Part shown: one piece after another, positions 10,274 through 48,096 of the stretch | How positions within the stretch are numbered: position 1 is the stretch's first letter | How the letters are laid out: every line of letters begins with the position of its first letter | Assembly: GCA_000091205.1 (NCBI GenBank) | Contig: AP006490.2 | Origin: Cyanidioschyzon merolae | Taxonomy: Eukaryota | DNA length: 64,000 nucleotides | Strand: one strand, 5' to 3' | Made by a program: the position numbers and the translations under genes | The notes under the pieces: generated by a model | Database searches by the model: none | Seen by the model: only the letters and a program-made list of their open reading frames with translations | Told to the model about the DNA's origin: nothing

Positions 10274-11883
10274 TGAACTCCTGAAAGTTCTACTCGTAAT
10301 TGTATAGGGTTGCGGAGGCTACCCTGGCGAAAAAGACAAAAGTTGGTGCTCCCGACGTGGCTATATGGGTTGCCCGCGAGCGCTTTAAAACGTTGTTGGA
10401 GAACGACAAGCGCGAATAGAAGCTGGTTTAGCTAGGACAAAGTTGTACAGATGAGTACAATTCACTGCGAAACCGCTCTCGCGATCCATTTCGAATTGCG
10501 CACCTGCTGGTAATTTATGTCCAGAAAAGTTCGATTCGGAGGATGGAAGCGCGCGATTCAAGGCGCGTGTCACGCGTACGCAATTGATTCGTGACACACC
10601 GCGTGGCACGCCTGCCGATCGGCGCTGCAACGCTTGCGCCTCTGTCCGAGCGACGCGTCGAGCGTGGCACCGCATGTGTCCATCGTACGGAATCAGGAGT
10701 CAACCTGGACCCGACTGGCCCGATGCGGTATCGATGAGCGCCAAAACACACGGAGGACATTTGGGTCTCCTGGAGCGATAGGGTGCAGGTCGTATGAGCT
10801 ATGGGGATCGGCCATTTGGTCCTGGCGTGGCATCGATGGGTCAAAGCGGGTGCCGTCGGATACGCCAACGCTTCCTGTGAAATCGAGGATGCAGCCTCAG
10901 CCTGTTCGAGGACACTAACGTGTGCCGGCACGCTCGGTCAAGAATTGCTTCACGGAATAGAGACGCGATCGATCACGCAAGATTTCGGATTTCTCCATAG
11001 AGTCAAGATCATGTGTCAAACTGGGGTTCGGCCGGTTGCGAATGTCGCTACGACCAGCTCTGGAAGCGTTCAGTGTTCCTGTTTGAATTTGACGACGTTC
11101 CACAGAATCCAGATGTGTTGTTCGCTTGGGCGTTCTCGTTTCATCCAATGAAATACGCATTGCCGAGCCTGCCGCGTTTGTCTGCTGGGACGCTGGGTGC
11201 GCCCCGCCGTCACATTCGCCCTACTGGAATGGAACGGTGTTGCCGTACCATGACGGAAGCTGGCCCCAGAAGAGCCGCTTTTCAGCGTCAACCCAGTGCG
11301 TCGATTATCCGGTGTCGTCTGCGCCATAAGAAGCCAGAAATCCCGCTTCGTCCAGCAAGCGTCCGGATGGCGGCGCTTCTGTTGCTGCACAGACACAGCA
11401 CGTTCGCAAGTCCGCTCGGAACATCTTCTGGTACCGTGGATGCACGTCGATAACGTCATCAGGCGCGTACGCCAGGACACCTCCATACGCTGGTGCCGCG
11501 GACACGGCGACGATCCTGGTACGGCCTAGCAGTTAGCGCCGGACCAAGAGCTGCCTTCACGTCGTCACAGGCGTTGTTCAGGCGTATCGCGCTGGGCCGG
11601 GAACGCATGGAACTCACCCCATGGATTTCCCGTGCGATTCATGGAGCGGACGCTGCTCGGGCACCGGCATCGATGCGGGAATTTGCGAGAAAGAGAGACT
11701 GTCCAATACTGCCTATTGCTGGATATAATGGTCAGACACGGGCGCTGTGCTGCCGTCGCGGTACGTGAGGTCATCATGCGAAGATAGCAAACAGCGCCAA
11801 GTACTGCGGGCCTGCCCGGTCAATCTCCTGCCGTGTAAACCTGTCGTAACGGGAAACTGTGCTCATGCGCCAAGCAGGTTCGT

Positions 11884-13626
11884 ATGGAGCGCCTTCGAAA
11901 CCAAGTGGATACGTCCCTGACACGAACTGTTGCCCGATCCGTGGTTGTGGGCAATATTCTCACTGTGCTTCTGCTGGGTGTGCTGTACGCCAACTATCGC
12001 ATCTTCGAGGCCTACATTTCAAGTTTTCTTTTGGCGCTGCTTGCTGCGGAGGCGCTAGCTGAGAGCCGCGATCGACTCGTTCGCTGGCTCTCGACCTCTG
12101 AATCAGAAGCTGAAGGAAACGATGTGCAAAGGCCGCGGCGTTTGTGGCACTTCCTCCTCAACCAACTTGGCAAGTTGCAGCAGGCCGTTCGCGGAAAGCA
12201 CTGGTTTGTCTGGTTGCTCAGCGGCACGGCGTTGTTGTTGCTCACGGTACGTGTCCAGCACGGAGGTTTTCTGGTGTTCATCTGCCTTGCGGTGCTGGGA
12301 GGCTCCGCGCTGTGCACTTTGGCTGCTGCACGGTTTCTAGTTCGGCTCCGTTGGATACATGCACGGACTGCTGCAGCAACGTTACTGCTCGCCGCAGTGG
12401 TATCTCTCGTGTGCATTTTCGTGCTCATTTTCGTGACAGGTGTCGTCCAGGATCTCGTTGGCGCTGCTAGAGCGTTGGCGCGACTCGCCCAGGACGCAGC
12501 TACCTGGAATCGCATCGATCCGCAGGGTATCTTGGCGAAAGGCCTCGAGCAGCTCCAGACATTCCTTGCCGCCCATGTGGAGGTGGCGGAGCGCTTCGCT
12601 TTGCGCTTTCGTGATGTACTCAAGGATCTGGGATTCGATATGGAGAATACGGAGCGCTGGTGGGTCAAAAGCAGTGACCCGTCCTGGTGGCGGGACTTTC
12701 TCACGGGGGACTTGCACGCAAACGCAATGCTGCGGGAAACGACATCTCTGAGGGTGCCCAGCTGGCAGCAAGCACGCACTGTGGCCAAAAGGCTCTGGGA
12801 AGGTGCTCGGAAGAACGTCACACCTGGATCAATCGCACGACTTGGCAAGCATATTCGTTTGCACGCAAGTTCGGAACAGATTTACACTGGAGCCCGTCTC
12901 GTCATGATCCCGGTCATGCGACTAGCGCAGGCCTTTGGAATTTTGCTGACGTACAGCGACGGCACTGCAGCTTTTCTTGCTATGTTTTTCTTCCTGCTCC
13001 GACAACCCGGTTCAGTTGTACATGCACTGGTCCAATGGATCCCGTTCCAGAACACAGAGCGCAACCGGAAATTGGAGCAAACGCTGCGTACGGACCTGCA
13101 TCGCTTCGTGTGGAGTGCGCTGAGTCAACTGTATCTGCAATCGCTTTTTGCATGGTGCGTCTTCGTGACGTTCGGGTTGGAGCTAGAATTCCTGGTAGCG
13201 CTCTGCGTTGGTGTATCCGTGCTCATACCCGTACTGCCCGGGCCGCTTCTCTGGACGACACTGCTTGGCTTGCCCCAGGTGATGATGCGCACGTCTCTGG
13301 GTAGACTTTGGCGTTCGCATGCCGCCTTAGCCTTTGTCTGCATCAATCTGGTTGGGCAGAAAGTCTTGGTGCGTTTCTCGCGAAATGCTGACGACGAAGA
13401 CGCAGAGCAGGTGCAGCAACGTGCGGACGGTACCCTGACGCCCACGAACGGCCTGCTCACATTATCCGCTCTGTTGGGATGGCGGATCCTAGGTGGACTG
13501 CGCGGTGCACTGATCGCAAGTTGCTGCATCTTCCTGACATCGCTGCTCGTGCAATGTCTTGTAGATGATTCCTCCACCAGGGGATCTGAAAATAAGATAC
13601 CTCACCAAAGCGGAGGTGCGGCGTAG
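11884..13626 (+). CDS. Polytopic membrane protein, AI-2E/UPF0118 (TMEM245-like) transporter family, tentative
   Basis: 580-aa ORF with at least 8 hydrophobic segments. The motif LIPVLPGPLLWTTLLGLPQ resembles the conserved IPYIGP motif of AI-2E family transporters. The family call is tentative. Confidence 0.55.
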   Translation: MERLRNQVDTSLTRTVARSVVVGNILTVLLLGVLYANYRIFEAYISSFLLALLAAEALAESRDRLVRWLSTSESEAEGNDVQRPRRLWHFLLNQLGKLQQAVRGKHWFVWLLSGTALLLLTVRVQHGGFLVFICLAVLGGSALCTLAAARFLVRLRWIHARTAAATLLLAAVVSLVCIFVLIFVTGVVQDLVGAARALARLAQDAATWNRIDPQGILAKGLEQLQTFLAAHVEVAERFALRFRDVLKDLGFDMENTERWWVKSSDPSWWRDFLTGDLHANAMLRETTSLRVPSWQQARTVAKRLWEGARKNVTPGSIARLGKHIRLHASSEQIYTGARLVMIPVMRLAQAFGILLTYSDGTAAFLAMFFFLLRQPGSVVHALVQWIPFQNTERNRKLEQTLRTDLHRFVWSALSQLYLQSLFAWCVFVTFGLELEFLVALCVGVSVLIPVLPGPLLWTTLLGLPQVMMRTSLGRLWRSHAALAFVCINLVGQKVLVRFSRNADDEDAEQVQQRADGTLTPTNGLLTLSALLGWRILGGLRGALIASCCIFLTSLLVQCLVDDSSTRGSENKIPHQSGGAA

Positions 13627-15550: not shown

Positions 15551-18500
15551 CTAGGCGCTGACGCGTGGGCCGTGCCCGGCACTACTAGCCGCCGAAGGCG
15601 TATGCTCGGGGTCTGCCGCTGAGGATGTGGCCAATTCTACATCCGACCGCATGTCTACGAGTCGCTCGTTGTTCTCCAGCAGCTGCGTGAGTTTCTCGGC
15701 CCACGCGATGCTGAGGCGTTGGAGCCGCGTCATATGCCGATGATGCACCGCAAGTACCCCGGTGGGTTGATCCCAACGGGCCGACAGCTCGCCCTGAACG
15801 ATCATCTTGCTCAGAATCGCATGAATGCGTCGAGGTTCCAATTCAAAGTGCTCGGCCAATTCTGTCTCTAGGGCAAACGTGTCACAGTATGGGGCATAGG
15901 CTAGTACGAACGCCTTGAGCGCAGCCTCCTTCAGCTGGGGCTGCAAACGACTCAAGCACGATGCATGACGGCCAGTCGGGGGCCCTTCGGTCTCAGCGGA
16001 TGACGCCGCCTGTGTTGCTTGTCCAGCCGCACTTTCCTGACTGGAAGCCGAATCACTCAGGCCAGGTTCAAGCTGGGCCCATACCTTGGCGCTCGCGAGC
16101 ACTTCATAGGCAGCACGCCAGTCACCCTGCAGCAGATGCTTGCTCGCCACTACAATGTGATCGCGGGTGTTCTCAGGTGGCCCCGATATCTGACCTCGGA
16201 GTGAGCCACGCATGAAATGCTGCCAAGCCCGCGAAACGCTTACTTGTCGCGCTTGTTGCTGTAGACTACTCAGTCCACTAGCTTGCGGCAGATTCTGATT
16301 CCACCCACTGGTGAACAATTCACCATGGGCTGAAGCATCGATCCGAGCGAGCCAGTCCGCGTTGCGAGCGGATACCGCAGCCATCAGTGGCACCTCGAGG
16401 AGCATCGCCGATGTCAAGTGAACAGCTTCAAGGAGTTCAGTCGAGATCTGCATGTGGAAAGGGACTTGTCGGCGTCGATCCGCGTCAGAGGCGTTACTGT
16501 TGACTGTCCCTGGTCCAGCTGGACGCGTCGGGGGTGCATGCTGAGCGAGCAGTTCTCGGATCCTCGACATGGATGTGGAGGCAGTTCCAGTACGCGGATC
16601 AAAGAACTGCGGAGGTGAACAGAGATCAGCGAGACAGGCATGGGTTTCGCCAATGAGACCACAGCGGAATGCACAAAGACCGAGCTGGGCCAGCGCCCTG
16701 TTGTACATGATCTGCAAGCCAATATCCTGCTGCTGAATGCTCTCCTGCAGATGCGTCATCAAGAAAAGGTCTCGGGCCCGAAAGAATTGATTCTCGATGG
16801 CGAGGTGGTACACATGCGCGAGCATTGTTTCCGCCTTGGCTCGTTCGTCGCCGTGGCGGTACACGAGGACCGTCAACTCCGTGAAAAGCGTTTCCAGGTC
16901 AGACCCTTCCGCTTCCTCAGCAGCTGGTTCCGTTGCACTCTTCAAGAGACGCATGCGCTGGTACATAGCGCTTGTCTGATAGTAAAGGTGCAGAATGCGA
17001 CGAGCTGCGACGCGCGCCGCTTGGCACGCATCCCCCACCTGTTCTTCATAGTAGTGCTGAACTCGTCGTGCGAAATCAAGCCAGCGAGGTTCGTCTCGCA
17101 GCCGTTCCACGTATTCTGTGGAGTGCGGATTCGATGCTTGGAAAGCACGGGTCAGTTCATCGTCCAAACGTTCGACAAGAGCCGCAAAATCCACCATCAC
17201 GTATTCGAGGGTTTCGGCTTCGGTCGACCCCAGAGCGCCGGATGCTGCTCCCAAGTCGCGGATCGCCGAGCGCACAACTTTGGGGTGTGACTTTGCGATC
17301 TGCAGTAACCTTTCCGCCGTGTTTGCAGCAGCCTGGTACATATCCCGGGGCATGACGCCGAGGGTATGCCCAAGATCGAACTGGGCGGCGATCATATGTA
17401 GCAGAACGCGCACGAGCTGTGCTGGCGTCTTTGCGGCCCGGGAAAGCCACTCCATTTGCCGTACTTGTTCGCGGCGATCCGTTCCTTTGCGTCCGCGAGC
17501 AGCAACAAGTTGTACGATGCGCTCTTCCACCTGCTCGGCGGTTAGATCCTCGGGTTTCTCCTCACGAGCCGGCGATGCGTATTTCCTGATGAATCCATCG
17601 GCGTCCTCGTCGGCACGGCTCTTGCGTCTCACCGCACGGGCGCGTCGCTCCTGTCGCCCGCGACGTCCCGATACGGAGGAATCGTCAGAACTTTCATCAC
17701 TTCTCGATAATGAAAGCGACGAGGATGATGAGGAGGAGGCGGATGACTCGCGTCGGAGCCAGCGAGCCGCTCTCGCACCGCGCACAGCCTCTGCAGGTTC
17801 CTCTGCTGCTAGGCTCTCTGACGATTCCTCACTTGAGCTTTCGTCCTCATCGGAGCTCGAAGTAGCCCAGGAAGACGATGCATCGGATTTGCTTTCGCTG
17901 TCGGTGTCACTGGCGGTGCCGGCCGACGACGATGAAGCTTCCGACGTACCGCGGGCAGTGCCAGCTGGACGCGATCCAACGAAGCTTGCTTTTCCCGATC
18001 TACGTTTGCGATCGAGAACTTCAGGTTCCAAGGTCTCGAGTTCGGGCGTTTCTGACTCGCCGGATGAGCTCGCACCCGCTTCACTCGATTCCCAGGGATC
18101 CGCGCCACTGGCTCTGTACTCGTTGATTGCTTCTTCGTACTCTCGGTTATTTTTGCGAAGGCGCTGCCGAGTCGTGTTCAGTGCCTTGGTATTCGTTTTG
18201 CTTAATTTCGGTTTCTCTGCGAGCGTTTTTGCGATCTCGTCCTCCAAAAGTACTAGCGCTTTCACATAGGGACGCGGCACAGGCGGACGCCCGCCTCTGG
18301 CAACGTCCGTGGACAGTGCCCGCTCCAAGCGTCGGTTTAGCTCGTCAAAATCTTGCTGCACGCTGGTCCAGTCGTTAATTTTGAGGTGATTTCGCAACTG
18401 CCGAAGCGAGTGCACAAGCGCCTCATACTTTTTCGTCTCCTTGGACTTTACGACTCGTCTTCCATCGCTGTCGGAGTCTGATTCGTCCTCATCCATGAGA

Positions 18501-18679
18501 AACCGGGCCCTGCTGAACCCTCCTCCCACGGTGGAACTCACTGCGCCGGTGGCACCTGTGACGCGAGCTGGCCCGGATCCGGCGCGCGGCACGACGTCCA
18601 CCGCATCGGAGAGCTCCCCCGAAGACGAGGAGGACTCCTCTTCGGAAGTGTCGCCGGTTGCAAAGAAGCGTGAAGTCAT
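15551..18679 (-). CDS. EIF3C: Eukaryotic translation initiation factor 3 subunit C (eIF3c/NIP1), PCI domain
   Basis: N-terminus [22 protein letters not shown] vs metazoan [34 protein letters not shown] matches [46 protein letters not shown] matches [33 protein letters not shown]. Acidic and Ser-rich stretches are also present. It is 1042 aa with no interruption. Confidence 0.92.
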   Translation of the reverse strand: [1042 protein letters not shown]

Positions 18680-19680
18680 ACTACTTGTCTAGTTGTTTCA
18701 AGTTGAACCAGAAGCTCAACAAGTCGGCCCGAACGTTCGCCTCGTGCCCGCGTGATCGAGACTCGCTTGAACCAAGGGTACTGAAGTTTTCAGGAAACGT
18801 GCTTAACAGCGGCCCCGCTTCAACCCTTCCGAGGCGCTGGAAGAGCGGCGGCCGCGCCAGGCTTCGCAGAAAAGCTGTACACAAACGGACATTCTTTGAA
18901 GCAACGCGTGCGCGCGCTCCACCGGCTACCACATCCTTTATGGAAACACGGAATGATCTTGGCAGTCTCTACGGTACGTTTACGGCATCAGATCGATGCA
19001 TCGATTTGTATGCTCGCTGAACCTGCGTGTCCTAGCAGACCTGAGAAGAGAAATCAGTGCCTCCACAGACGTCGGTGCGAATTACAAACTCCAAAGTTTT
19101 ATTTCTGTGAAGAATACTAGCCAGATTCCAGCTGCCTCTCTGGTACCGAGCACGTCAGGAACCGCACAATGCGACGCTGGATATGCGCCGCAGTCGCGCT
19201 TTCCCCGCAGAAACAAAACGATTATGCGGCGCCTTTGCGGGTGTCTGTTCAGGGCGTTGCCAACCCGAGCCACGGCCTGTCCAGTCCTCGGGCCGGGCTC
19301 TCTCAATCTGCGGAAGCAGACCGATTACCAGCGACGCGGAAAGAAGCAATGACAGGAACTCGGTCGCTAGAGCGTAGGCTGGGCGTCGAGCGCCCCTTTG
19401 GCGTCGTGGATTGGCTGCCCGGACCTCGCGGCAGTGCCAATCACCGAGAAGGCGCTCCGAGCCCTGGCGCGGCAGACACAAAAAGACCGGTCCGCAGCGC
19501 ATTCGACCGAAACACTAAGATATCGCAATCGTGAGTGTCTGCAGCCCAACACAGGGCGGTCGGCGAGTCAAGCCTCGATCCCCTCGGATAACCCTGATCT
19601 GAGGCCTGGCCTGCAGACCACGGAGACGCCCATGCCTATCGCGATGCAGCATATCCGATCATCGGACACGTTCGCGCGTA

Positions 19681-19957
19681 CCGAAGGCAGCGTTGATCCG
19701 TAGATCCAATGCTGTCCCAAACTGTCTAGATACGTTCTTGAAATCGCATCATCGTCCGCATTCTGCGTTCCGAAGGCAGCATCGATCCGTAGATCCAATG
19801 CCATCCCATAATGTCTAGATACGTCCCTGAAATCGCCATCACCAGTGGCATTCGTGCGTTCCATAGGCAGCGTTGATCCGTAGATCCAATGCTGTCGCAA
19901 AATGTTCAGACGCGTCCCTGAAATCGCCATCTCCAGCGGCATTCGCGCATCCGCATC
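19681..19957. repeat. Tandem repeat, ~90-bp unit x ~3
   Basis: Units begin at 19681, 19770 and 19861, as ccgaaggcagcgttgatccgtagatccaatgc... The array generates the repeated LGQHWIYGSTLP peptide in antisense ORF 19568..19990. Confidence 0.85.
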
Positions 19958-20321: not shown

Positions 20322-23300
20322 ATGCCGAAGCTCCACCGTGTTCGAGCGGCTTGCGCTCTATGCAAGGAGAAGGAGGCGGTGGTCTACTGTTGCAGCCACG
20401 GCTGTGCGCTCTGTCTCACCTGCGATCGGAAGGAGCATAAAAGCGCTGTTGACTTTGGGACAAGACAGTTCAACACAAGGCGTAATGTGAGCGCAATGGA
20501 GGCAGTGGACTCCAATAAAGAAGGCTCGCGAGGAAAAATTACTGAGAAACTGCTTCGAGAAGGGCCGCCTTCTGCTTCGCAACTGGAACAGGCGAGTCGA
20601 CGTGCTGAGCGTCGAGCAGGAGCGTGTGCGCAGAAGCAACTGCAGTCCGATGTTGAAGTCGCGGCTCAGGTTGGGGCAACGGCTGAGAACAATTCAGGTT
20701 TACCGGGCGTGACGCGGGACTGCGTGGATGCTGCTTCCGTCGCGAAACGGTACCTAACCGACGGCCCGCAGGTGCACAGCGCACTGGAGAATAGCGGCCT
20801 GGATACTTGTCGCGCCGACGCGAGACCTGTGTTTCCTGTTATTGTGCCAGCTATCGGGGTCTCGGCTCTGACACAGCGGCCTTCGGAGAGCGTGCCAGAG
20901 CCTCAAGCAACGGAAACGAAGAACTGCGCTTTAGCCGAGAATCCGCTGTTTTTCAAGCCTGACTCGGAGCTGCCCTCTGGGGACTCACACTGGGCGAACC
21001 AGATTTATATTTCTAGTTCAGGATCGTCGAGTGTATCTGGTTCAGGTGAAACAGCAGAAAAGATCAGTGACTTTCGCGAGGGCGCGCCCTCGCTGGAGAC
21101 ACCACCTAACGAAGGACAATCCAGCTCTCAGTCGTCTACATTCAGGGACGGCCCCGGCCGGACGACAAGCTCATCGGATTTGCAAACTGCTGGTGTACTT
21201 CCATGTGCATCCGCAGATGTGCAAGCTCATGTGCGGCATCCGATTGTAGCGCCCGCTGTACTCATTCTTTGCGATTCCTGTGGCGCCATGCCGGCCGTCG
21301 CGTACTGCACAGAAAGGGCGCGTTTTCACTGTGAGCTTTGTATGAAATACGCACACGCATCGGGCTCTGCACCGGATGCACCACAGGAACTGCCTATGGC
21401 GTGGCAAGTGCAGTGCATGAAAAGTGGGAAAGCCGCCGATGCAGACATGAAGGGCGCCCACCGGCACGAGCAAGACCCATACGCCTCAAGTCGGAGTCGA
21501 TGCGGGGATTCTGGGGACAGCGGCAGTGCCGAGCGTGAACCCACAAGTGAATCACCCAGCGGCGGTGATCAGGGAACCTCTCATTCCGGCAATGGCGGCA
21601 GTAGAGAGCCGACATCATCGTCCCCGGCAGAGACGGCCGCTACGACGAAGCCACAGAATCTAGAGGGTCCAAGTACTACGGCAAAGAGTGCTCATTCGCA
21701 GCGAAAAACATATTCCGATCGAGGGCTCTCGCGATCTGTCGCTATGATGATGCTTTTGGATTGCTCTGTCGAGGTCCCGTCCCGCGGCTCCGAAGAGCTG
21801 TCTGCAGAGGGCGGCGATGATGCCTCAGCTGAAAGCATCAGTGAACAAACAGACGCCGAGAGCATGAGTCTCGGACACGAAAGCGCGCGATCCGGGGAAT
21901 TTCGCGCAGACCCCTGTACAGAGCCGACGCTCACCTCAACTGGTTTGCCCATCAAATGGGCAACCGCCATTTCCGAGGAGGATCTTGCTGCAGCCGCTGA
22001 GCGAGCCGTTCGCGTATTCGCCGCCTCGTCGAATAGCAACGGCACCCGAAGCACGAGCAGTAGACACGCAAGCAGCAATGACTTGTCTTCTGCAATCGTG
22101 CCCGGGACAGGTACCCATGATGTTGCCACAGCAGCTCCAGCGGTGCAATCTGAAGCAGCAGCAGAGGCGGCTCCGGCGCAGGTAACCGGTTTCGAACAGC
22201 CGCCTTTACCTGCCTGCTGCATCGATATAACGACCACCGATGCACGAAGAGCAATCTCTATCGCAAAGAATGAACCATTCATCATTGGACAGCGCTCGCG
22301 ACCGGCGTATGCGCCTTCGTCGCCTCTTGGACAGCAACCGACATCGCAGTCTACAGGGCGCCGAGGTGGTACCCATCAGCGCAGAACAGCGGATGCAAGT
22401 GAAGGTGCCAAGCGTGCGCTACCGCTCAAACATCAGGCAAACACAACTGCGAGCCGCTGGCGAAAAGGACGCGCCACCGGAAAGAACGTGGATATGCGCC
22501 CCGACGCCAATCATCCCGAAGAGGAACCGCTGGCACCACATTTAACTGGGTTGGATGTCTGGGGACCTCATCCGGAGACGATGGCGATCATCGACAGCAG
22601 CACGCTCGCTCAAGCTGAGACGGCCAGGGGGTTGCGCTCCAAGACAGGGGCGCCAAGGAGCGCGGAGCAAATGCGCGGCACCGCTCTCAAGGTCGAAGGC
22701 GCTGCCATCTGTGCGTCGAGCGCACGAGCCGCATGCTCAGCTGAAGGCCAGGCAGTGTCCGCACCGAGGATGCGTACCTCAGCGCGAGCTTTGGAATCCT
22801 CGACCAGAGTGGATAGTACGCCCCTGGTGCCTTGGCGTGATCTAGAGGTGCAGCAGGCACCGTCTCTCTCGAAACCGCAGGTCCCGGCTTACGTTGCGGC
22901 GTGGTCTGCCTCCCCGAGTCAGCCGAGTTTGGCGGACTTTGTGGAAGCACCTCTTGAATGCAGAAGAAGTATCTCAAAAGCGGCATCAGCGCAGGAGTTG
23001 CGAACGGCATCCGGTCGAGTACCCGATAGCCGGCATCGCTCTTCACGGGAAACCGCCCCGGGCCTAGCAACGCGAACTTCACGGGAAAGCGCTTCGCATC
23101 CTGCGAGTGCACAGACTGCACATCTCGTGGAAGAAGGAGCCACGAGCCGCGGTTGTCCGGCGGGTTTGGTTCATCTCGACGCTGGACCAAGAGGCGGGCA
23201 TGGTGTTGCCTCCATTGCAGTGGGGACGATCGACGGGAACCCAGCCAAACTCCGTGGCTTTGACGATGGCACCCCAGCAGCACGTCTGAGCCCACGTTCC

Positions 23301-24092
23301 GGGACACCGGTTGAAGGCTCGTTCAAGATGGCATCTGGTGCGGGTATTCCAGGTAGCGGATCCTCGCAGCAGGCCCGTTATCCGACCGTGTCGGGTTTGT
23401 CGCGTCGACGGGCAGAGTCAGCGCGCGCGAAAGTGGATCGCTGGCTGCTTGGCGCTACCCAGCCAGCGGGTGTGCGGCGCTGCGAGTCACCCTTTCGACA
23501 GCCACAGGCATCGTATCGCGAAGTGGATGTCTTGGATCGGGCAGCAGCTGGACCTGGAGTCATCGCGCAGCCGCAAGCGGATCAGGGCAACGAGGACACG
23601 CTCATGGACGACAGTGACCCGGCACTGGAAACAGGTCAACTGCGTAACCGCACTCGTGAACTCGACAAGAGCGCCGCAGCGGAGCCCGGTCAAGGCAGCG
23701 AGCTCGATTCAAAAGCCGAGGCGGATTTGGCCATGGTGGATATGCTCGTCCCAGATTTCAGCAAGTACGCGACGCCACTACCACATGGATTGATGTCACG
23801 AAGCACACCATCGAGCAGTAGTGGCAATGGTGAAACCTCCAGCACCGGTGGTGGCGATCTGGAACCGTCGCCGCTGGCTGCGAAACGCACCTTGCGTGTG
23901 GAAGTCGCGTCAGAGGAGGCTAGGCGGATGCATTCTCGGCTGCAACAACACAAGTCGTCAGGTATGCTGGTGCCACGAATGACTGCTTCCTGGTCGGCAG
24001 AAGTGAAGTCGGCGGCTCATCGACGCCACAGCCATGCGCATCTATCTTCGAAAGATGCGGAACAAAAGCATCCCGATGAAACATCAGCGTAG
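20322..24092 (+). CDS. B-box zinc-finger protein with very long low-complexity (Ser/Ala/Pro/Gly-rich) tail
   Basis: N-terminal CALCKEKEAVVYCCSHGCALCLTCDRKEH has the plant CONSTANS-type B-box spacing C-X2-C-X8-C-X7-C-X2-C-X4-H. A second B-box-like Cys cluster is ILCDSCGAMPAVAYCTERARFHCELC. The remainder of the 1256 aa is low complexity. Confidence 0.65.
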   Translation: MPKLHRVRAACALCKEKEAVVYCCSHGCALCLTCDRKEHKSAVDFGTRQFNTRRNVSAMEAVDSNKEGSRGKITEKLLREGPPSASQLEQASRRAERRAGACAQKQLQSDVEVAAQVGATAENNSGLPGVTRDCVDAASVAKRYLTDGPQVHSALENSGLDTCRADARPVFPVIVPAIGVSALTQRPSESVPEPQATETKNCALAENPLFFKPDSELPSGDSHWANQIYISSSGSSSVSGSGETAEKISDFREGAPSLETPPNEGQSSSQSSTFRDGPGRTTSSSDLQTAGVLPCASADVQAHVRHPIVAPAVLILCDSCGAMPAVAYCTERARFHCELCMKYAHASGSAPDAPQELPMAWQVQCMKSGKAADADMKGAHRHEQDPYASSRSRCGDSGDSGSAEREPTSESPSGGDQGTSHSGNGGSREPTSSSPAETAATTKPQNLEGPSTTAKSAHSQRKTYSDRGLSRSVAMMMLLDCSVEVPSRGSEELSAEGGDDASAESISEQTDAESMSLGHESARSGEFRADPCTEPTLTSTGLPIKWATAISEEDLAAAAERAVRVFAASSNSNGTRSTSSRHASSNDLSSAIVPGTGTHDVATAAPAVQSEAAAEAAPAQVTGFEQPPLPACCIDITTTDARRAISIAKNEPFIIGQRSRPAYAPSSPLGQQPTSQSTGRRGGTHQRRTADASEGAKRALPLKHQANTTASRWRKGRATGKNVDMRPDANHPEEEPLAPHLTGLDVWGPHPETMAIIDSSTLAQAETARGLRSKTGAPRSAEQMRGTALKVEGAAICASSARAACSAEGQAVSAPRMRTSARALESSTRVDSTPLVPWRDLEVQQAPSLSKPQVPAYVAAWSASPSQPSLADFVEAPLECRRSISKAASAQELRTASGRVPDSRHRSSRETAPGLATRTSRESASHPASAQTAHLVEEGATSRGCPAGLVHLDAGPRGGHGVASIAVGTIDGNPAKLRGFDDGTPAARLSPRSGTPVEGSFKMASGAGIPGSGSSQQARYPTVSGLSRRRAESARAKVDRWLLGATQPAGVRRCESPFRQPQASYREVDVLDRAAAGPGVIAQPQADQGNEDTLMDDSDPALETGQLRNRTRELDKSAAAEPGQGSELDSKAEADLAMVDMLVPDFSKYATPLPHGLMSRSTPSSSSGNGETSSTGGGDLEPSPLAAKRTLRVEVASEEARRMHSRLQQHKSSGMLVPRMTASWSAEVKSAAHRRHSHAHLSSKDAEQKHPDETSA

Positions 24093-28646: not shown

Positions 28647-29985
28647 CTATGCGAGAATAAAATGGAACGATGTCAGCTTCATGAATTCTGGTGTTCACGC
28701 GAACCCATAGGCCTGCTACCAGGATGATGAACACCGGCCGGTTGACGCTCATTCTGTCAATGCTTTCTGGTCTCCTGCATCGTATCTCCGATACGAAATA
28801 CGCTGGACTGCCGTCTCTCGCAAGTTACGCTGCCAGCAGTCGACGGGTATTCGTGGCGGCACGGGAGTCCCGATTTCGCTGCATGGGGCGGTTGTCAACG
28901 CTTTTCATCCAGAGTCGGAAGTTGCAATCAGCGTTTCTCTTGCCATTGGCATATTCCTTGGACACATCTCCGGTACGCCATCCGCAGCGTCGGCACTCGG
29001 CTGGCGTCAGACGTTCGGTGGAGTCCGCCAGAACGCCCCCTTCGATGGCCATCCTGTGGCTCGTCCATGCTTCCCTCAGCGTCCGGTACGTGCACTGGAC
29101 GGGTACAGAAGGCTCTGCTCGATGCCCAGTTCCGTTGACACAACCGGTGCCGTATCCCCTGATCACGCGCTCCTTCCACGCGATCCCGACGGTGAGTACC
29201 CTGCCTGCTGCATGAAACAGAGGATCTGTGGAACGCGGTGTTGTCTGTGGTGAAACAAGTACCAGAAGGACTATCCAGACTGGAGACGAAACCGAAAAGC
29301 TTCGCTGCGTCTATGCTCCCGCTGTACAAGCCGGTGACGCACGCTCCACACTGACACCGGTCGCTCCGACGACTACAGCCCGAGCCCAAGACCCGTTTCC
29401 ATGCAAACGCAAGTGACTGAGGCCCCTGGAAGCGCACCCCGCGAGCAGGCCCATGCTGGTGTGGAATGGCGTTCCATCTGTGGCCGCACTGAGCGTGTGG
29501 AGGATTCGTCCTTCCAATGGATTCGGTTCATTGGCGTTACAAGTGCAGTGAACATGCGGCATGAGCTTGTGGAGCATTCGTCATGCGACGGCGTTGCGTT
29601 CGTTTTCTTCGCATGGCTCCAGCGGCACTACTCTGGGGCGCCCGCGAGGTCTCTCGGGATCGAAAGATTGAAAAGCTCAAGAACGGGTGATTCGCGCACG
29701 CTACGGGCAAGCGGGGTAGAGGCATCGAGGCGTGCACGTATGGACTGGGTGATGGTATCGAAGGCTGATTCTGGGGAACGTTCACCGGCTGGGTTTCGAA
29801 TGATGTTGATTCTGGTGACGTAACGAAACCGGCGGTGGCGATGCGTCGAATGAGCCACACGGACACGGCATCAGAGAACTCTGAGACTACCTAGGAACGG
29901 GAGAGCCCTCATTGCTGTACTGGAATGTCGAGGCTGGGCATCTAGAAAGAGTCTCCGAACAAAACGTAGGGCTGGAGCAGAGCGA
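28647..29985 (+). repeat. 1.34-kb dispersed repeat, copy A (direct repeat partner at 40349-41692)
   Basis: About 1337 bp, ~98.8% identical to copy B with ~16 substitutions counted by eye. It begins ctatgcgagaataaaatgga and ends ...aaaacgtagggctggagcagagcg. Internal ORFs have no recognisable domains. Confidence 0.9.
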
Positions 29986-30478
29986 GCAGTGTAGTCTTTA
30001 ATTTTTATCTGATAATGTAAGCACGAATATTTCAATCCAAATCAGACCTCCAAGGTGCACTGGTTACCACTACAGAGCCGTCCCTTTGGAGTTAATGGTT
30101 CGTTCATACGATCCTGCGAATGCCGGGCCTGGAGTGTGTACCCCGCTGCAACAGAGCAGCCTTGCTCTACGCTTGTGCACTTGCGGTGCCGCCACGATGC
30201 ACCTGACGCATGGTCGGGTATTGTTCCCAGTTTATGCCCCGATAGTCTGCGTGTGCAGGTGTGCCAGCACGGAACGACGCACCGGAGAAACTCAGCTCTT
30301 TGGACAAACCGCTGGTATCGAGACTCGCCAGGCAATCTTCTATGGGATATGGTGCGGGTTCAGGGCGCGGGCCTTCCTATGTGTATATTGCGTGCGCGCC
30401 GCAGCGTTCCTGGATGTTGAATCCATTGGTGTCTGCGCTCGCGACACATCACATTGTTAGGCTAGTCGTTTCACTTTT

Positions 30479-40348: not shown

Positions 40349-41692
40349 ACCTATGCGAGAATAAAATGGAAAGATGTCAGCTTCATGAATTCTGGTGTTT
40401 ACGCGAACCCATAGGCCTGCTACCAGGATGATGAACACCGGCCGGTTGGCGCTCTTTCTGTCAATGCTTTCTGGTCTCCTGCATCGTATCTCCGATACGA
40501 AATACGCTGGACTGCCGTCTCTCGCAAGTTACGCTGCCAGCAGTCGACGGGTATTCGTGGCGGCACGGGAGTCCCGATTTCGCTGCATGGGGCGGTTGTC
40601 AACGCTTTTCATCCAGAGTCGGAAGTTGCAATCAGCGTTTCTCTTGCCATTGGCATATTCCTTGGACACATCCCCGGTACGCCATCCGCAGCGTCGGCAC
40701 TCGGCTGGCGTCAGACGTTCGGTGGAGTCCGCCAGAACGCCCCCTTCGATGGCCATCCTGTGGCTCGTCCACGCTTCCCTCAGCGTCCGGTACGTGCACT
40801 GGACGGGTACAGAAGGCTCTGCTCGATACCCAGTTCCGTTGACACAACCGGTGCCGCATCCTCTGATCACGCGCTCCTTCCACGCGATCCCGACGGTGAG
40901 TACCCTGCCTGCTGCGTGAAACAGAGGATCTGTGGAACGCGGTGTTGTCTGTGGTGAAACAAGTACCAGAAGGACTATCCAGACTGGAGACGAAACCGAA
41001 AAGCTTCGCTGCGTCTATGCTCCCGCTGTACAAGCCGGTGACGCACGCTCCACACTGACACCGGTCGCTCCGACGACTACAGCCCGAGCCCAGGACCCGT
41101 TTCCATGCAAACGCAAGTGGCTGAGGCCCCTGGAAGCGCACCCCGCGAGCAGCCCCATGCTGGTGTGGAATGGCGTTCCATCTGTGGCCGCACTGAGCGT
41201 GTGGAGGATTCGTCCTTCCAATGGATTCGGTTCATTGGCGTTACAAGTGCAGTGAACATGCGGCATGAGCTTGTGGAGCATCCGTCATGCGACGGCGTTG
41301 CGTTCGTTTTCTTCGCATGGCTCCAGCGGCACTACTCTGGGGCGCCCGCGAGGTCTCTCGGGATCGAAAGATCGAAAAGCTCAAGAACGGGTGATTCGCG
41401 CACGCTACGGGCAAGCGGGGTAGAGGCATCGAGGCGTGCACGTATGGACTGGGTGATGGCATCGAAGGCTGATTCTGGGGAACGTTCACCGGCTGGGTTT
41501 CGAATGATGTTGATTCTGGTGACGTAACGAAACCGGCGGTGGCGATGCGTCGAATGAGCCACACGGACACGGCATCAGAGAACTCTGAGACTACCTAGGA
41601 ACGGGAGAGCCCTCATTGCTGTACTGGAATGTCGAGGCTGGGCATCTAGAAAGAGTCTCCGAACAAAACGTAAGGCTGGAGCAGAGCGTGCA
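40349..41692 (+). repeat. 1.34-kb dispersed repeat, copy B (direct repeat partner of 28647-29985)
   Basis: Same orientation as copy A and ~98.8% identical. The identical ORF set is regenerated: the 174-aa, 169-aa, 140-aa, 113-aa and 109-aa ORFs appear in both copies in the track. Confidence 0.9.
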
Positions 41693-42504
41693 GTTCAGCG
41701 TTCCACGCGAATCTGACGCAAGTGTTTTTGCGGCCTTCTTCTGTGCGTTCGCTTGCATTATCCCTTGCGCCAAGACGATAGCGACTGTTGCAACGAATCC
41801 AAATATTTTTTCGATCGTCGAGTTGGCAACGAAATGCAGATCATAAGTGCCTACCAAAGCACCCTGCTGTAGAGCATGGAGTCTGCTGGATCGTGGACAG
41901 CGTCGAATCCAAGTCTGGCACTTGAGCAGCGCAGCATACGGACGGTGTTCGTTGGACACTGTCAAGAATTCACGTCCTGGGTATCGCAGCAAGATCAACC
42001 GCGCGTGTTTAGTTCAAACCCAAGAAAAGATGGGTCACTCGGTAAGCGATTCACGTCCTGTCATAATCGGAAGGCGCAGCTGCCGTGCTCGTCCCTTGTA
42101 CCTGTTTGACTGGTGCCGAGGGTTCGCATTCATGAACGCCTAACAAGGCTTCCAAAGGATTGCTGCAGGCCTCGTGGGTATCGGTGCTTGACTGAGAGCA
42201 TACGGGCTCCGTATCGAGTATTGTCTAGATGTTGAAGATTCGTGCACGTTCGGCACCAGAATCGTCCGATGTTTTTGGTTCGCATTGTACAGAAAACAGC
42301 ATACGTGGCATGGATACAGCCTAATTTGATGTTATCTGGTGCTCCAGTCGGCATGTCGTCTCTGTATCATCCGGCACAAGTCGAATTACTGAAGCAGGTT
42401 ACCCGGCAGCATGCTCTGTCACGGTTTCCGGTATCGCAACGTTCCCCGCAGTTTCTCTCGCGTCTGACGCACGCCCGGCACCAGGTTTTCAAGCATTTCA
42501 GTGC

Positions 42505-44383: not shown

Positions 44384-45211
44384 TTAATTATCTGCCATTC
44401 GGTATTCTTCAAGTTCCCGGTCGAGTTCCTCAGCACTCTTTGATGGAGCTTCCTGTCCACGAGGGCGCGTTGGTCGCCGCATTCGACGACGCCCACGTGC
44501 CTTCGTGGTGCGTTTCGCAGTTGAATCGTGTTTCTCGGACTCGAAACCCGGGGTCGCTGTCGACTCAGTCTCCATTTGCTGACCATCGCCAGCTGCCTGC
44601 ATTCGAAGTCTGCGTCGACGCCGTGCTCTGCGACGCTCCATCGTTTGGGTGCTCTCGAGCACACGAACAACGTCCCGCACACCGCCCTTGCCGGCGACAA
44701 TGCGCAGTCCGCCAACCGCCTCAGCAGTAGGTTTTGGCACCGGCGGAAGGCGCGCGCCCCGTTCCTTGAGCCGAAGCTTCCGTTTGGGTGTCATAGACGG
44801 TGGAACAGCCGACCTCTGCGTTTGAGGGTGCGCCCCGGACGTATTCAGCGCAGCCGCGGCACCCGAGCTTTCGATCTGCACCACAAGCGGCTGCCCGTCC
44901 AGCGTCAGCGAGTGAAACTGTTTCACCGCGCGCTCTGCTGTTTCCATATCCGCGTACTTGACAGTTGCGACGCCCTTGCTCTTACCCTCACGATCATGGC
45001 GAATGAACGCGGTAATAGTTGGACCAACCGAGTTAAAAAGGTCGGCAATATCTTGAGAAGTCACCGACGGGGCCAGGTTGCTCACGGAAACAACAACAGC
45101 TTTCGAGCCGGGTCGCTGACCGGCCTGAACAACCCTGCGACGCCTTTGGGCTTTTCGAATTCTCCCCTGGGCGACCGCCTTGGGAACTCGCGCTGTGTGA
45201 TCAACTTGCAT
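44384..45211 (-). CDS. Aly/REF-type RNA export adaptor (THO complex subunit 4-like), single RRM
   Basis: The RRM VVSVSNLAPSVTSQDIADLFNSVGPTITAFIRHDREGKSKGVATVKYADMETAERAVKQFHSLTLDGQPLVVQI aligns with the ALYREF RRM ([23 protein letters not shown]...[41 protein letters not shown]). It is flanked by Arg/Gly/Ala-rich N- and C-terminal boxes. Confidence 0.7.
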   Translation of the reverse strand: MQVDHTARVPKAVAQGRIRKAQRRRRVVQAGQRPGSKAVVVSVSNLAPSVTSQDIADLFNSVGPTITAFIRHDREGKSKGVATVKYADMETAERAVKQFHSLTLDGQPLVVQIESSGAAAALNTSGAHPQTQRSAVPPSMTPKRKLRLKERGARLPPVPKPTAEAVGGLRIVAGKGGVRDVVRVLESTQTMERRRARRRRRLRMQAAGDGQQMETESTATPGFESEKHDSTAKRTTKARGRRRMRRPTRPRGQEAPSKSAEELDRELEEYRMADN

Positions 45212-45396
45212 ACGTTAAGCAGAACGGTAAGCGCGCTCTGTGGCGTGTGGAAACAGCAAGGAGATGAAAGCTGCTCTGTGTAGCGCAAGAAAGCGTCGTT
45301 CAACGGTAACGTTCGCGCTAAACTCAGCGGCAACACGCCGGCGTGCCGCGCACTCCGGAACGCTGGGATTCATTTTTTTTTGAATGCGCGGGGCAG

Positions 45397-46376
45397 GGAG
45401 CATCCACGAAGCTGTATCCTGATGGATCCGTATGAGCGGGTGTTTGTGGAACTTGCTCGCCGTGGGGCGTATGGATGCTTTGGAACGTACCCCAGTGCAG
45501 CATATCTCTGTGTCTGTGTCACGTCCGTGACTAGGAGCATCCACGAAGCTGTATCCTGATGGATCCGTATAAGCGGGTGTTTGTGGAACTTGCTTGCCGT
45601 GGGGCGTATGGATGCTTTGGAACGTACCCCAGTGCGGCATATCTCTGTGTCTTTGTCACATCCGTGACTGGGAGCATCCACGAAGCTGTATCCTGATGGA
45701 TCCGTATGAGCGGGTGTTTGTGGAACTTGCTCGCCGTGGGGCGTATGGATGCTTTGGAACGTACCCCAGTGCGGCATATCTCTGTGTCTGTGTCACGTCC
45801 GTGACTGGGAGCATCCACGAAGCTGTATCCTGATGGATCCGTATAAGCGGGTGTTTGTGGAACTTGCTTGCCGTGGGGCGTATGGATGCTTTGGAACGTA
45901 CCCCAGTGCGGCATATCTCTGTGTCTGTGTCACGTCCGTGACTGGGAGCATCCACGAAGCTGTATCCTGATGGATCCATATGAGCGGGTGTTTGTGGAAC
46001 TTGCTCGCCGTGGGGCGTATGGATGCTTTGGAACGTACCCCAGTGCGGCATATCTCTGTGTCTTTGTCACATCCGTGACTGGGAGCATCCACGAAGCTGT
46101 ATCCTGATGGATCCGTATAAGCGGGTGTTTGTGGAACTTGCTCGCCGTGGGGCGTATGGATGCTTTGGAACGTACCCCAGTGCAGCATATCTCTGTGTCT
46201 TTGTCACATCCGTGACTGGGAGCATCCACGAAGCTGTATCCTGATGGATCCGTATGAGCGGGTGTTTGTGGAACTTGCTCGCCGTGGGGCGTATGGATGC
46301 TTTGGAACGTACCCCAGTGCGGCATATCTCTGTGTCTTTGTCACATCCGTGACTGGGAGCATCCACGAAGCTGCGT
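45397..46376. repeat. 137-bp tandem satellite, ~7.1 units, two alternating unit variants
   Basis: Unit starts (ggagcatccacgaagctg) at 45397, 45534, 45671, 45808, 45945, 46082, 46219 and 46356, a period of exactly 137 bp. Variants alternate, e.g. tgagcgggtgtttgtggaacttgctcgcc vs taagcgggtgtttgtggaacttgcttgcc, and gtctgtgtcacgtcc vs gtctttgtcacatcc. The array produces a ladder of artefactual ~131-aa ORFs on both strands. Confidence 0.92.
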
Positions 46377-46956
46377 CATGTTCGCGTGTGTATCGAGCGT
46401 ATCGCTGAGTGTGAGGTCGTTGTACACAAACGGAATCCGCAAGTAGCCTTCACATCAGCGGGTTCTCATCTCGAAGTCATCAACACTAGAATCCGCTTCC
46501 GGTCATAAACATCCACGACGTGCATGCACTGCATCAAGTTTCTGTATTTAGATCATGTTAAAGGTAGAGTCATCTGAAGAAAGTTACCTTCCGGGGAAAC
46601 CAAGTACATAGCGTATGATTCGGCAGCATGGAAGCGGTGACGCACGCTCGTCTCTTCATGAAGATGATGACGATCATTATCACCGTCGCTGTAGTGCTGG
46701 CGGTGCTCAGAGCATAGACACTGCAACATCAAGAATGTAGGCGGTAGACGCGGACTCCAGGAAAGCGCGTTTCGTTTGCTTCGACTTGGCTTCATCTTGA
46801 TGCACGCGCACCAGTATGAGGCGTTTTCCACGTCTGGATTCGCGAAAGCATCGTGCGTATCAAAACTGACGATATTCAAGCTGTTAAAACGCAATGGCTC
46901 TACAACACGAATTCCACGGATGTGCGAATGCTCTAACTTAGCAGCAATACGACCTG

Positions 46957-48096
46957 TTGGCAACGGTGCGTCCAGCCAAGCGGCCGCGGCTGCCGAGCGA
47001 CTCGACGGCGCCGCTGCGAAACGCAAGGCTACGCATCGACTTGTCGAGTCTACTAAGAGGTATGCATATGCAGGGGGCCTTTGTTGCTGCCGGGAAACCG
47101 CCTTTCAGGATTCACTTAGTGCACGAGAAGCAGCCAAAATTTTTGCACGGTGCTGGTGTGAGGTATAGCGCTCGATCAACTCGTTGGTATCGTTGGAGTC
47201 TACGGTGCACGAGTTCTGAATCGAGGACGACGAATACTGCTGCACCTACCGAGAAACTGGGGTTCATTGGCGGCACTGGGAACATGGGGTCGTCCATCAT
47301 CAAAGGACTCATTGAAGTGCAAGCACTTAGCCCACAGCACATCCTGTGTAGCGGTAGGGATGCTCAGAAGCTGGAACGCTTCTCAATTGAGACCGGTTGC
47401 ACCGCGATGACCGACCTTGCAACGCTCTGTGCCCAGTCGACGGCACTTTTTCTCTGTGTAAAGCCTGCTCAGTGTCAGGCAGTTCTGGAACGTATGGTAG
47501 CCGAAGCCGGCGAGAGTCTGAACGGTAAGCGTCTGATTTCGGTAGCAGCTGGGGTCCCGGTTTCGGCTCTGGAGCGACCACTGCGCGTTGAAGCCGTGGA
47601 ACAGTGCCGGTGCCGGGTACTCCGCTGCATGCCAAACGTGTTGGTTCGGCACGGCCTAGGTGCTATGGCCGTATCACGGGGAACGACTGCAACGGACGAG
47701 GATGTTTCATGGGCGCTGCAGTTGCTCGGGCGCCTGGGCCTGGTTGCCGAGCTCGAGGAGTCTCTCATGGACGCCACGGTGGCTGCCGCTGGAAGCTCAC
47801 CTGCATTTGCGTTTATCTTCATGGAAGCGCTGACGGATGCGGCGGTGAGAGAAGGTCTACCACGCCACATCGCACGCAGTTTTGTGGCGCAGACGCTTTG
47901 TGGTGCCGCCCAGATGGCTCTTCGGGATTCAGATGCTCACTTTGGAGAACTGCGTAACCGTGTCGAGTCACCGGGTGGCACCACAATCGCTGGCTCATGT
48001 GCATTGGAGGAGAACGGATTCCGCAAGGCCGTGATTGCCGCAGCAGCCGCTGCAGCTGCCAAGTCTCGCGCGTTCGCGGACCGCTTCTCCGCGTGA
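46957..48096 (+). CDS. proC: Pyrroline-5-carboxylate reductase (ProC/P5CR) with ~100-aa N-terminal extension
   Basis: Matching P5CR motifs are GFIGGTGNMGSSIIKGL, LFLCVKPAQCQAVL, ISVAAGVPVSALE, RCMPNVLVRHGLGAMAV, DATVAAAGSSPAFAFIFMEALTDAAVREGLPR and SPGGTTIAGSCALEENGFR. The upstream ~100 aa are basic and Ser-rich. Confidence 0.85.
   Translation: MATVRPAKRPRLPSDSTAPLRNARLRIDLSSLLRGMHMQGAFVAAGKPPFRIHLVHEKQPKFLHGAGVRYSARSTRWYRWSLRCTSSESRTTNTAAPTEKLGFIGGTGNMGSSIIKGLIEVQALSPQHILCSGRDAQKLERFSIETGCTAMTDLATLCAQSTALFLCVKPAQCQAVLERMVAEAGESLNGKRLISVAAGVPVSALERPLRVEAVEQCRCRVLRCMPNVLVRHGLGAMAVSRGTTATDEDVSWALQLLGRLGLVAELEESLMDATVAAAGSSPAFAFIFMEALTDAAVREGLPRHIARSFVAQTLCGAAQMALRDSDAHFGELRNRVESPGGTTIAGSCALEENGFRKAVIAAAAAAAAKSRAFADRFSA

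Follow-up and report, generated by a model that had tools for sequence, protein, structure and literature searches.

The 64-kb stretch of Cyanidioschyzon merolae DNA analysed here (the window), which comes from chromosome 8 of strain 10D, carries a block of 137-bp tandem repeats between two divergently transcribed genes. The question raised by this locus is whether the block is a genuine element with a task of its own, regulatory, structural or RNA-coding, or a passive product of tandem duplication. TRF places the array at 45396-46373 with 7.1 copies, 97% matches, 0% indels and a score of 1851, by a wide margin the strongest tandem array of the window; the same block was recovered as direct-repeat family D1 in a repeat search of the window. 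The exact 137-bp periodicity within a divergent intergenic region, described in the first-pass annotation, is confirmed by these values, and the coordinates given there (45397-46376) agree closely with those of TRF. Read in register, the array consists of seven full units and a 19-bp partial unit, after which the similarity ends abruptly. The elements of the locus are the following:

44384-45211, minus strand: gene of an Aly/REF-like single-RRM protein, 275 aa (open reading frame and Pfam RRM_1)
45212-45395: unique 184-bp spacer, from the Aly start codon to the array
45396-45532: unit 1, full 137-bp unit
45533-45669: unit 2, full 137-bp unit
45670-45806: unit 3, full 137-bp unit
45807-45943: unit 4, full 137-bp unit
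45944-46080: unit 5, full 137-bp unit
46081-46217: unit 6, full 137-bp unit
46218-46354: unit 7, full 137-bp unit
46355-46373: partial eighth unit, 19 bp
46374-47061: unique 688-bp spacer, from the array to the P5CR start codon
47062-48096, plus strand: gene of pyrroline-5-carboxylate reductase (P5CR), 344 aa as annotated (100% identity, Pfam)

The interval between the two start codons measures 1850 bp, and the array, with its 978 bp, takes up 53% of it; it had been described as filling most of a 1.7-kb interval. The gene to the right encodes a protein 100% identical to the P5CR of C. merolae 10D (BAM79808.1 / XP_005536094.1), with matches to Pfam P5CR_dimer and F420_oxidored. Its annotated start is the ATG at 47062, and the open frame reaches upstream to a TTG at 46957, the position from which the gene had first been counted. 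The protein to the left possesses an RRM (Pfam RRM_1, E=1.7e-15) and a weak, below-cutoff match to FoP_duplication, and structure chains of ALY/THOC4/REF2 are among the RRM proteins that its RRM matches, at about 5e-9. On the basis of these three matches, the label “Aly/REF-like” is reasonable for 44384-45211. The left array edge lies 185 bp from the Aly-like ATG, and the right edge 688 bp from the ATG of P5CR. The 184-bp spacer, which contains a T9 tract at 45373-45381 (14 bp from the array edge), presumably represents the Aly core promoter and 5' UTR, and the 688-bp spacer presumably the P5CR promoter and 5' UTR; GC content falls to 48% at 46300-46750.

The P5CR-side spacer shows two minor features. 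A weak match to Rfam sR28 at 46453-46516 on the minus strand (E=0.09; 17.3 bits, where the gathering score is 39) contains UGAUGA and CUGA motifs with a spacing too short for a typical C/D-box snoRNA, and is probably noise. A 157-aa open reading frame at 46553-47026, on the minus strand and thus antisense to the P5CR upstream region, has no Pfam match on record and occurs as a JGI gene call in several metagenome contigs (e.g. L012, 257-730); it is probably spurious.

The array has a GC content of 54-55%, equal to the genome average, with a plus strand rich in G and T. On both flanks, in-register as well as gapped similarity to the unit was no better than that of shuffled sequences, and the array edges are therefore sharp; the possibility of an older, decayed array extending into the flanks was rejected on the same comparison. 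Among the seven units of 10D, variation is confined to seven columns, and each unit represents a distinct haplotype (7/7). Strict alternation is seen in column 39 (G A G A G A G) and, over the first four units only, in column 63 with the same pattern; columns 121 and 128 change together (G/G or T/A) without alternation. The “two alternating variants” reported at first are thus found in column 39, but not in columns 121/128, nor in the array as a whole with its seven haplotypes. Units two positions apart differ on average at 2.4 positions and adjacent units at 3.83 (permutation P=0.035), a contrast reached by 3.5% of unit orderings. This contrast is a modest sign that the array has grown partly in two-unit steps. 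The proposed 274-bp higher-order structure probably overstates this signal, which derives mainly from one alternating column; the TRF output for the array contains no row with a period of 274 bp.

A separate observation concerns the kind of substitution. Across strains, five of the ten variable unit positions (columns 35, 63, 104, 128, 132) are CpG-to-TpG/CpA transitions, while CpG positions account for 14.6% of the unit's length (binomial P=0.009 for the excess); the observed/expected CpG ratio in the whole window is 1.14, i.e. CpG is not depleted. Local methylation of cytosines, or deamination driven by heat, could account for the excess of transitions within the unit.

The array is also present outside the reference strain. 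Twelve other samples, drawn from JGI and ENA metagenomes and from Logan assemblies of SRA runs, yielded contigs with 98.4-99.5% identity to the window; wherever such a contig reaches an array edge, its junction is that of 10D. The right junction, which reads ...CACGAAGCTG up to the boundary and CGTCATG beyond it, is identical in the contigs that reach it, e.g. L001, L004, L005 and L010-L014. Owing to these identical junctions, the array of 10D is not an assembly artefact. The majority of the matching contigs begin or end within the array, as would be expected of short reads at a tandem repeat. Two contigs (L004 and L005) cross the whole array with 2.1 units, a count that may result from collapse during short-read assembly, and another (L010) contains more than 2.4 units before it breaks, compared with 7.1 in 10D. 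The counts outside 10D reflect either copy-number polymorphism or assembly collapse. The polymorphic columns 1, 39, 63, 104 and 128 recur across strains in differing combinations, whereas the T121/A128 pair was found among the sampled strains in 10D only, in four of its seven units (2, 5, 6 and 7). Since this pair is restricted to 10D and yet occupies 4/7 units, unequal exchange or conversion would have carried it from unit to unit; together with the recurring variable columns, the pair forms the pattern that would be expected of exchange or conversion within the array. The array is older than the ~1% divergence among the sampled strains, and unit variants are common to them; it has accordingly persisted, and this would be consistent with weak selection.

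One of the metagenome contigs differs at the neighbouring gene. In L015 (JGI 3300052695, Ga0506597_000434), positions 1-254 are 254 non-matching bp that replace the sequence upstream of window position 47080, at the P5CR N-terminus, and the resulting P5CR variant has 349 aa. This replacement is either a structural variant at the 5' end of P5CR or the product of a chimeric contig.

The age of the array can be bounded from the other side by comparison with relatives. The divergent Aly/P5CR pair and its neighbours, pantoate ligase and DUF493, are syntenic in two of them: (i) Cyanidiococcus yangmingshanensis, whose P5CR is 59% identical and whose Aly/P5CR intergenic region has 692 bp; (ii) a JGI metagenome relative with a P5CR of 66% identity and an intergenic region of about 1320 bp. 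An Aly-like orthologue occupies the equivalent divergent position in L002 and in L003, the latter being the JGI relative. The syntenic intergenic region of both relatives is free of a tandem array, and neither BLAST at word size 7 nor an nhmmer profile revealed any similarity to the unit in either; a progenitor or orthologous copy of the unit was sought in the relatives by the same two methods and rejected. After subtraction of the array, the C. merolae interval has 872 bp, in line with the relatives. Because their intergenic regions contain neither the array nor anything similar to its unit, the array arose later than the separation from Cyanidiococcus, but earlier than the ~1% divergence of the sampled C. 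merolae-like strains.

A 22-mer from an invariant part of the unit matched four JGI metagenome contigs, each at the Aly/P5CR locus. A second locus was not found by this JGI metagenome scan, by protein searches with the array open reading frames, or by an nhmmer profile run over the window. The term “satellite”, used in the first-pass annotation, is too strong for seven copies at the one locus found. A viral origin was considered as well and discarded, the 22-mer having 0 matches in IMG/VR. A literature search found no published mention of the array.

Tandem arrays of this kind are not restricted to the Aly/P5CR locus. Apart from an 11-bp microrepeat, one other tandem repeat was detected in the window:

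19671-19945: second tandem array, 91 bp x 3.0, 83% identity

It likewise lies in a divergent intergenic region, between open reading frames at 15551-18679 (minus strand) and 20322-24092 (plus strand). Kinship between the two arrays was rejected, as the one word that the 91-bp array has in common with the 137-bp unit is the 8-mer GATCCGTA, an overlap within chance expectation, and the 91-bp array gives no nhmmer match. In the JGI relative L003, the 21-kb locus contains two tandem duplications (83 bp x1.8 at 11841-11993 and 68 bp x2.3 at 15835-15988), which are located in one convergent and one tandem intergenic region. Short intergenic tandem arrays thus seem to recur in Cyanidiophyceae genomes, and because those of L003 occupy convergent and tandem intergenic regions, such small arrays have no special link to divergent promoters. 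[quoted passage not shown]

The window also contains a dispersed direct repeat of 1.34 kb, at 28647-29990 and 40351-41694, whose copies are 98-99% identical and 11.7 kb apart. It has no convincing long open reading frame and is present in metagenome contigs too. An interspersed element family with 253 copies has been described in C. merolae (PMC1955436), and the 1.34-kb repeat may be a fragment of it.

The array is probably a lineage-specific, single-locus minisatellite of C. merolae, turning over by exchange or slippage and serving as a passive spacer. According to this explanation, a 137-bp piece of the intergenic region between the Aly/REF-like and P5CR genes would have undergone tandem duplication once the lineage had separated from Cyanidiococcus, and would then have expanded to at least seven copies in strain 10D. 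Its upkeep and reshuffling would proceed by unequal exchange between sister chromatids or homologues, by gene conversion or by replication slippage, sometimes in two-unit steps. The array would encode neither RNA nor protein. Its likeliest effect would be passive, the addition of about 1 kb between the promoters, for which relatives use some 0.7-0.9 kb, while both genes would retain their unique upstream DNA, 184 bp for Aly and 688 bp for P5CR. We infer both the origin by tandem duplication, with turnover by unequal recombination or slippage, and the lack of a dedicated function.

The strongest competitor, unlikely in our estimate, is a multimerised cis-regulatory module with candidate transcription factor sites in each unit, acting as a copy-number-tunable enhancer or silencer of Aly/REF, P5CR or both, modelled on the unstable repeats found in yeast promoters. 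The setting of the array is a divergent promoter region, and a distance of 185 bp from a start codon is the spot where a regulatory effect is most plausible. The array is present throughout the sampled strains, and short repeats and palindromes occur within its unit (AGCATCCA/TGGATGCT, ATGGATxC, GGATCC). However, once multiple testing is corrected for, no 8-mer of the unit is over-represented elsewhere in the window, and the variable sites are scattered over the unit without an obvious protected core. Moreover, relatives keep the same gene pair without a trace of the unit, and therefore the array is not an ancestral regulatory element.

A bolder version of this idea, which we consider improbable, would see in the array a regulatory module under selection, tunable through its copy number, or else a hotspot of recombination, within the bidirectional Aly/REF-P5CR promoter. 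At the same low level of confidence, a predicted factor would bind each 137-bp unit, and unequal exchange would tune expression between natural populations of C. merolae. Gain or loss of units would then adjust the mRNA-export adaptor, proline synthesis or both. C. merolae combines efficient homologous recombination with a newly described sexual cycle, so that, if this version were true, promoter-VNTR evolvability would become directly testable in a minimal eukaryote.

A role in chromatin, be it the phasing of nucleosomes, the separation of the two promoters by a barrier or insulator, or marking by Polycomb (H3K27me3) on account of its repetitiveness, is more doubtful still. The array does lie between two divergent genes, but its GC content does not depart from the genome average. 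The nucleosome core particle covers 147 bp. The 137-bp unit is shorter, one nucleosome per unit being impossible without overlap, and the array displays no 10-bp WW periodicity (P=0.70); the nucleosome phasing put forward in the first-pass annotation consequently finds no backing here. A literature search found no MNase data for C. merolae. As for Polycomb, roughly half of the repetitive elements annotated in C. merolae bear H3K27me3, but the genes targeted by this mark are stated not to lie near repetitive elements (PMC5405695).

The possibility of tandem small non-coding RNA genes, including a novel structured RNA or a small-RNA precursor, has only a slight chance of being correct. The length of 137 nt falls within the size range of small RNAs, and on the minus strand the unit folds slightly better than shuffled sequences (z=-1.67, with 9/200 shuffles as good), but the plus strand does not stand out (z=-0.83). 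A novel structured RNA was rejected, as neither strand folds in a way that sets it apart from shuffled sequences; the linked change at 121/128 is not compensatory, and the variable sites are too few for covariation. The Rfam scan, named in the first-pass annotation as a check, was run on the whole window and gave 0 matches at the gathering score; at E<=10 the array itself yielded only PVT1_3 noise of 11-12 bits, and ARAGORN detected 0 tRNA genes. An array of 5S rRNA, tRNA, snRNA, snoRNA or SL RNA was excluded by the lack of covariance-model and tRNA-detector matches, which bears out the earlier impression, gained by eye, that the unit resembles none of 5S rRNA, tRNA or snRNA. The unit is, furthermore, not conserved outside the species. 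C. merolae is reported to have no RNAi machinery (PMC11376382), and for this reason the suggested small-RNA source is unlikely.

A coding origin was likewise examined and rejected. The minus strand of the array carries a series of open reading frames:

45215-46366, minus strand: overlapping ladder of spurious open reading frames, 99-141 aa (open reading frame list)

Shorter frames of 73-82 aa cover the array on the plus strand. The minus-strand ladder, with one stop per three units, arises because 137 is not a multiple of 3, and the shortage of stop codons on this strand is not significant (P about 0.09). None of the array frames matches a Pfam family or domain. Homology beyond the locus was found neither in a word-indexed search of 5.8 billion proteins nor in a full HMMER scan of 1.84 billion representatives: both return gene calls at the array locus in metagenomes, plus P0138, another translated repeat in which 9/24 residues are matched many times over and which was set aside as noise. 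The warning that the ladder could be miscalled proved apt: the ladder includes minus-strand frames of 127-141 aa, and JGI pipelines called two of them as genes. Because no match in these protein searches comes from NCBI (0 entries), the array frames are missing from the reference annotation. A transposable element with internal repeats was also discarded, given that there are no inverted repeats flanking the array, no other copies found and no Pfam domains.

The last pair of alternatives, an assembly artefact or the centromere of chromosome 8, has a practically negligible probability: tandem repeats are classic sites of misassembly, but the seven distinct unit haplotypes permit unambiguous Sanger assembly, which makes a misassembly of 10D unlikely, and both junctions recur in 12 independent samples; a single small regional centromere is present on every C. 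merolae chromosome and recruits CENH3, but the GC content of the array does not correspond to that of centromeres. With reference to Kanesaki 2015, 10.1101/096016 describes the latter as 2-3 kb long and low in GC (48.4% versus 55%), with no other pattern.

In practical terms, the minisatellite reading makes the array a confirmed but ordinary feature, mostly of housekeeping value. It explains the breaks at this locus in short-read and metagenome assemblies of C. merolae-like genomes, as well as the 95-141-aa “proteins” without homologues that gene callers place there. It is a candidate VNTR marker for strain typing in C. merolae, and a stretch that needs care or avoidance in homologous-recombination constructs or promoter fragments of the neighbouring genes. 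What is known of RNA genes, centromeres and chromatin in C. merolae is unchanged by it. If copy number were to affect expression, the locus would be a handy system for the study of promoter VNTRs in a very simple eukaryote.

The array can finally be compared with known repeat systems. Satellite DNA in the strict sense extends over many kb to Mb at several heterochromatic or centromeric loci, and this class was rejected for an array of about 1 kb between housekeeping genes. The array resembles alpha satellite and its higher-order repeats in unit size (roughly 140-170 bp) and in a possible trace of a dimeric, 274-bp period. It differs in having seven copies and no second locus found, in its euchromatic, non-centromeric position between housekeeping genes, and in a dimer signal that stems mainly from one alternating column. 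Tandem small-RNA arrays (5S rDNA, spliced-leader RNA, snRNA/snoRNA) are likewise made of intergenic tandem units of ~100-150 bp; in contrast to them, the 137-bp array lacks a covariance-model match, a structure signal, conservation beyond the species and recognisable promoter boxes.

Unstable tandem repeats in yeast promoters were reportedly described by Vinces et al. in 2009. As in those promoters, a tandem repeat is present here in an intergenic region containing promoters, and a change in its length could alter spacing or expression. The yeast repeats are, however, mostly short, often AT-rich and nucleosome-excluding, whereas the unit of the present array is long and of average GC.

The closest likeness is to minisatellites or VNTRs, such as the human hypervariable and the yeast intergenic ones. 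The array is a head-to-tail block with sharp edges, its length of 978 bp lies within the conventional range of ~0.5-30 kb, and it was found at a single locus in the JGI metagenome 22-mer scan, the array-frame protein searches and the window. Like minisatellites, it contains interspersed variants with signs of exchange, which are reshuffled between strains, one of them spreading in a single lineage, and it has no coding or RNA function. The hallmark of VNTRs is copy-number polymorphism; the copy numbers available outside 10D come from short-read contigs, in which the repeat may have collapsed. The unit, at 137 bp, is just above the conventional ~10-100 bp, an excess that is a matter of naming and not of mechanism.
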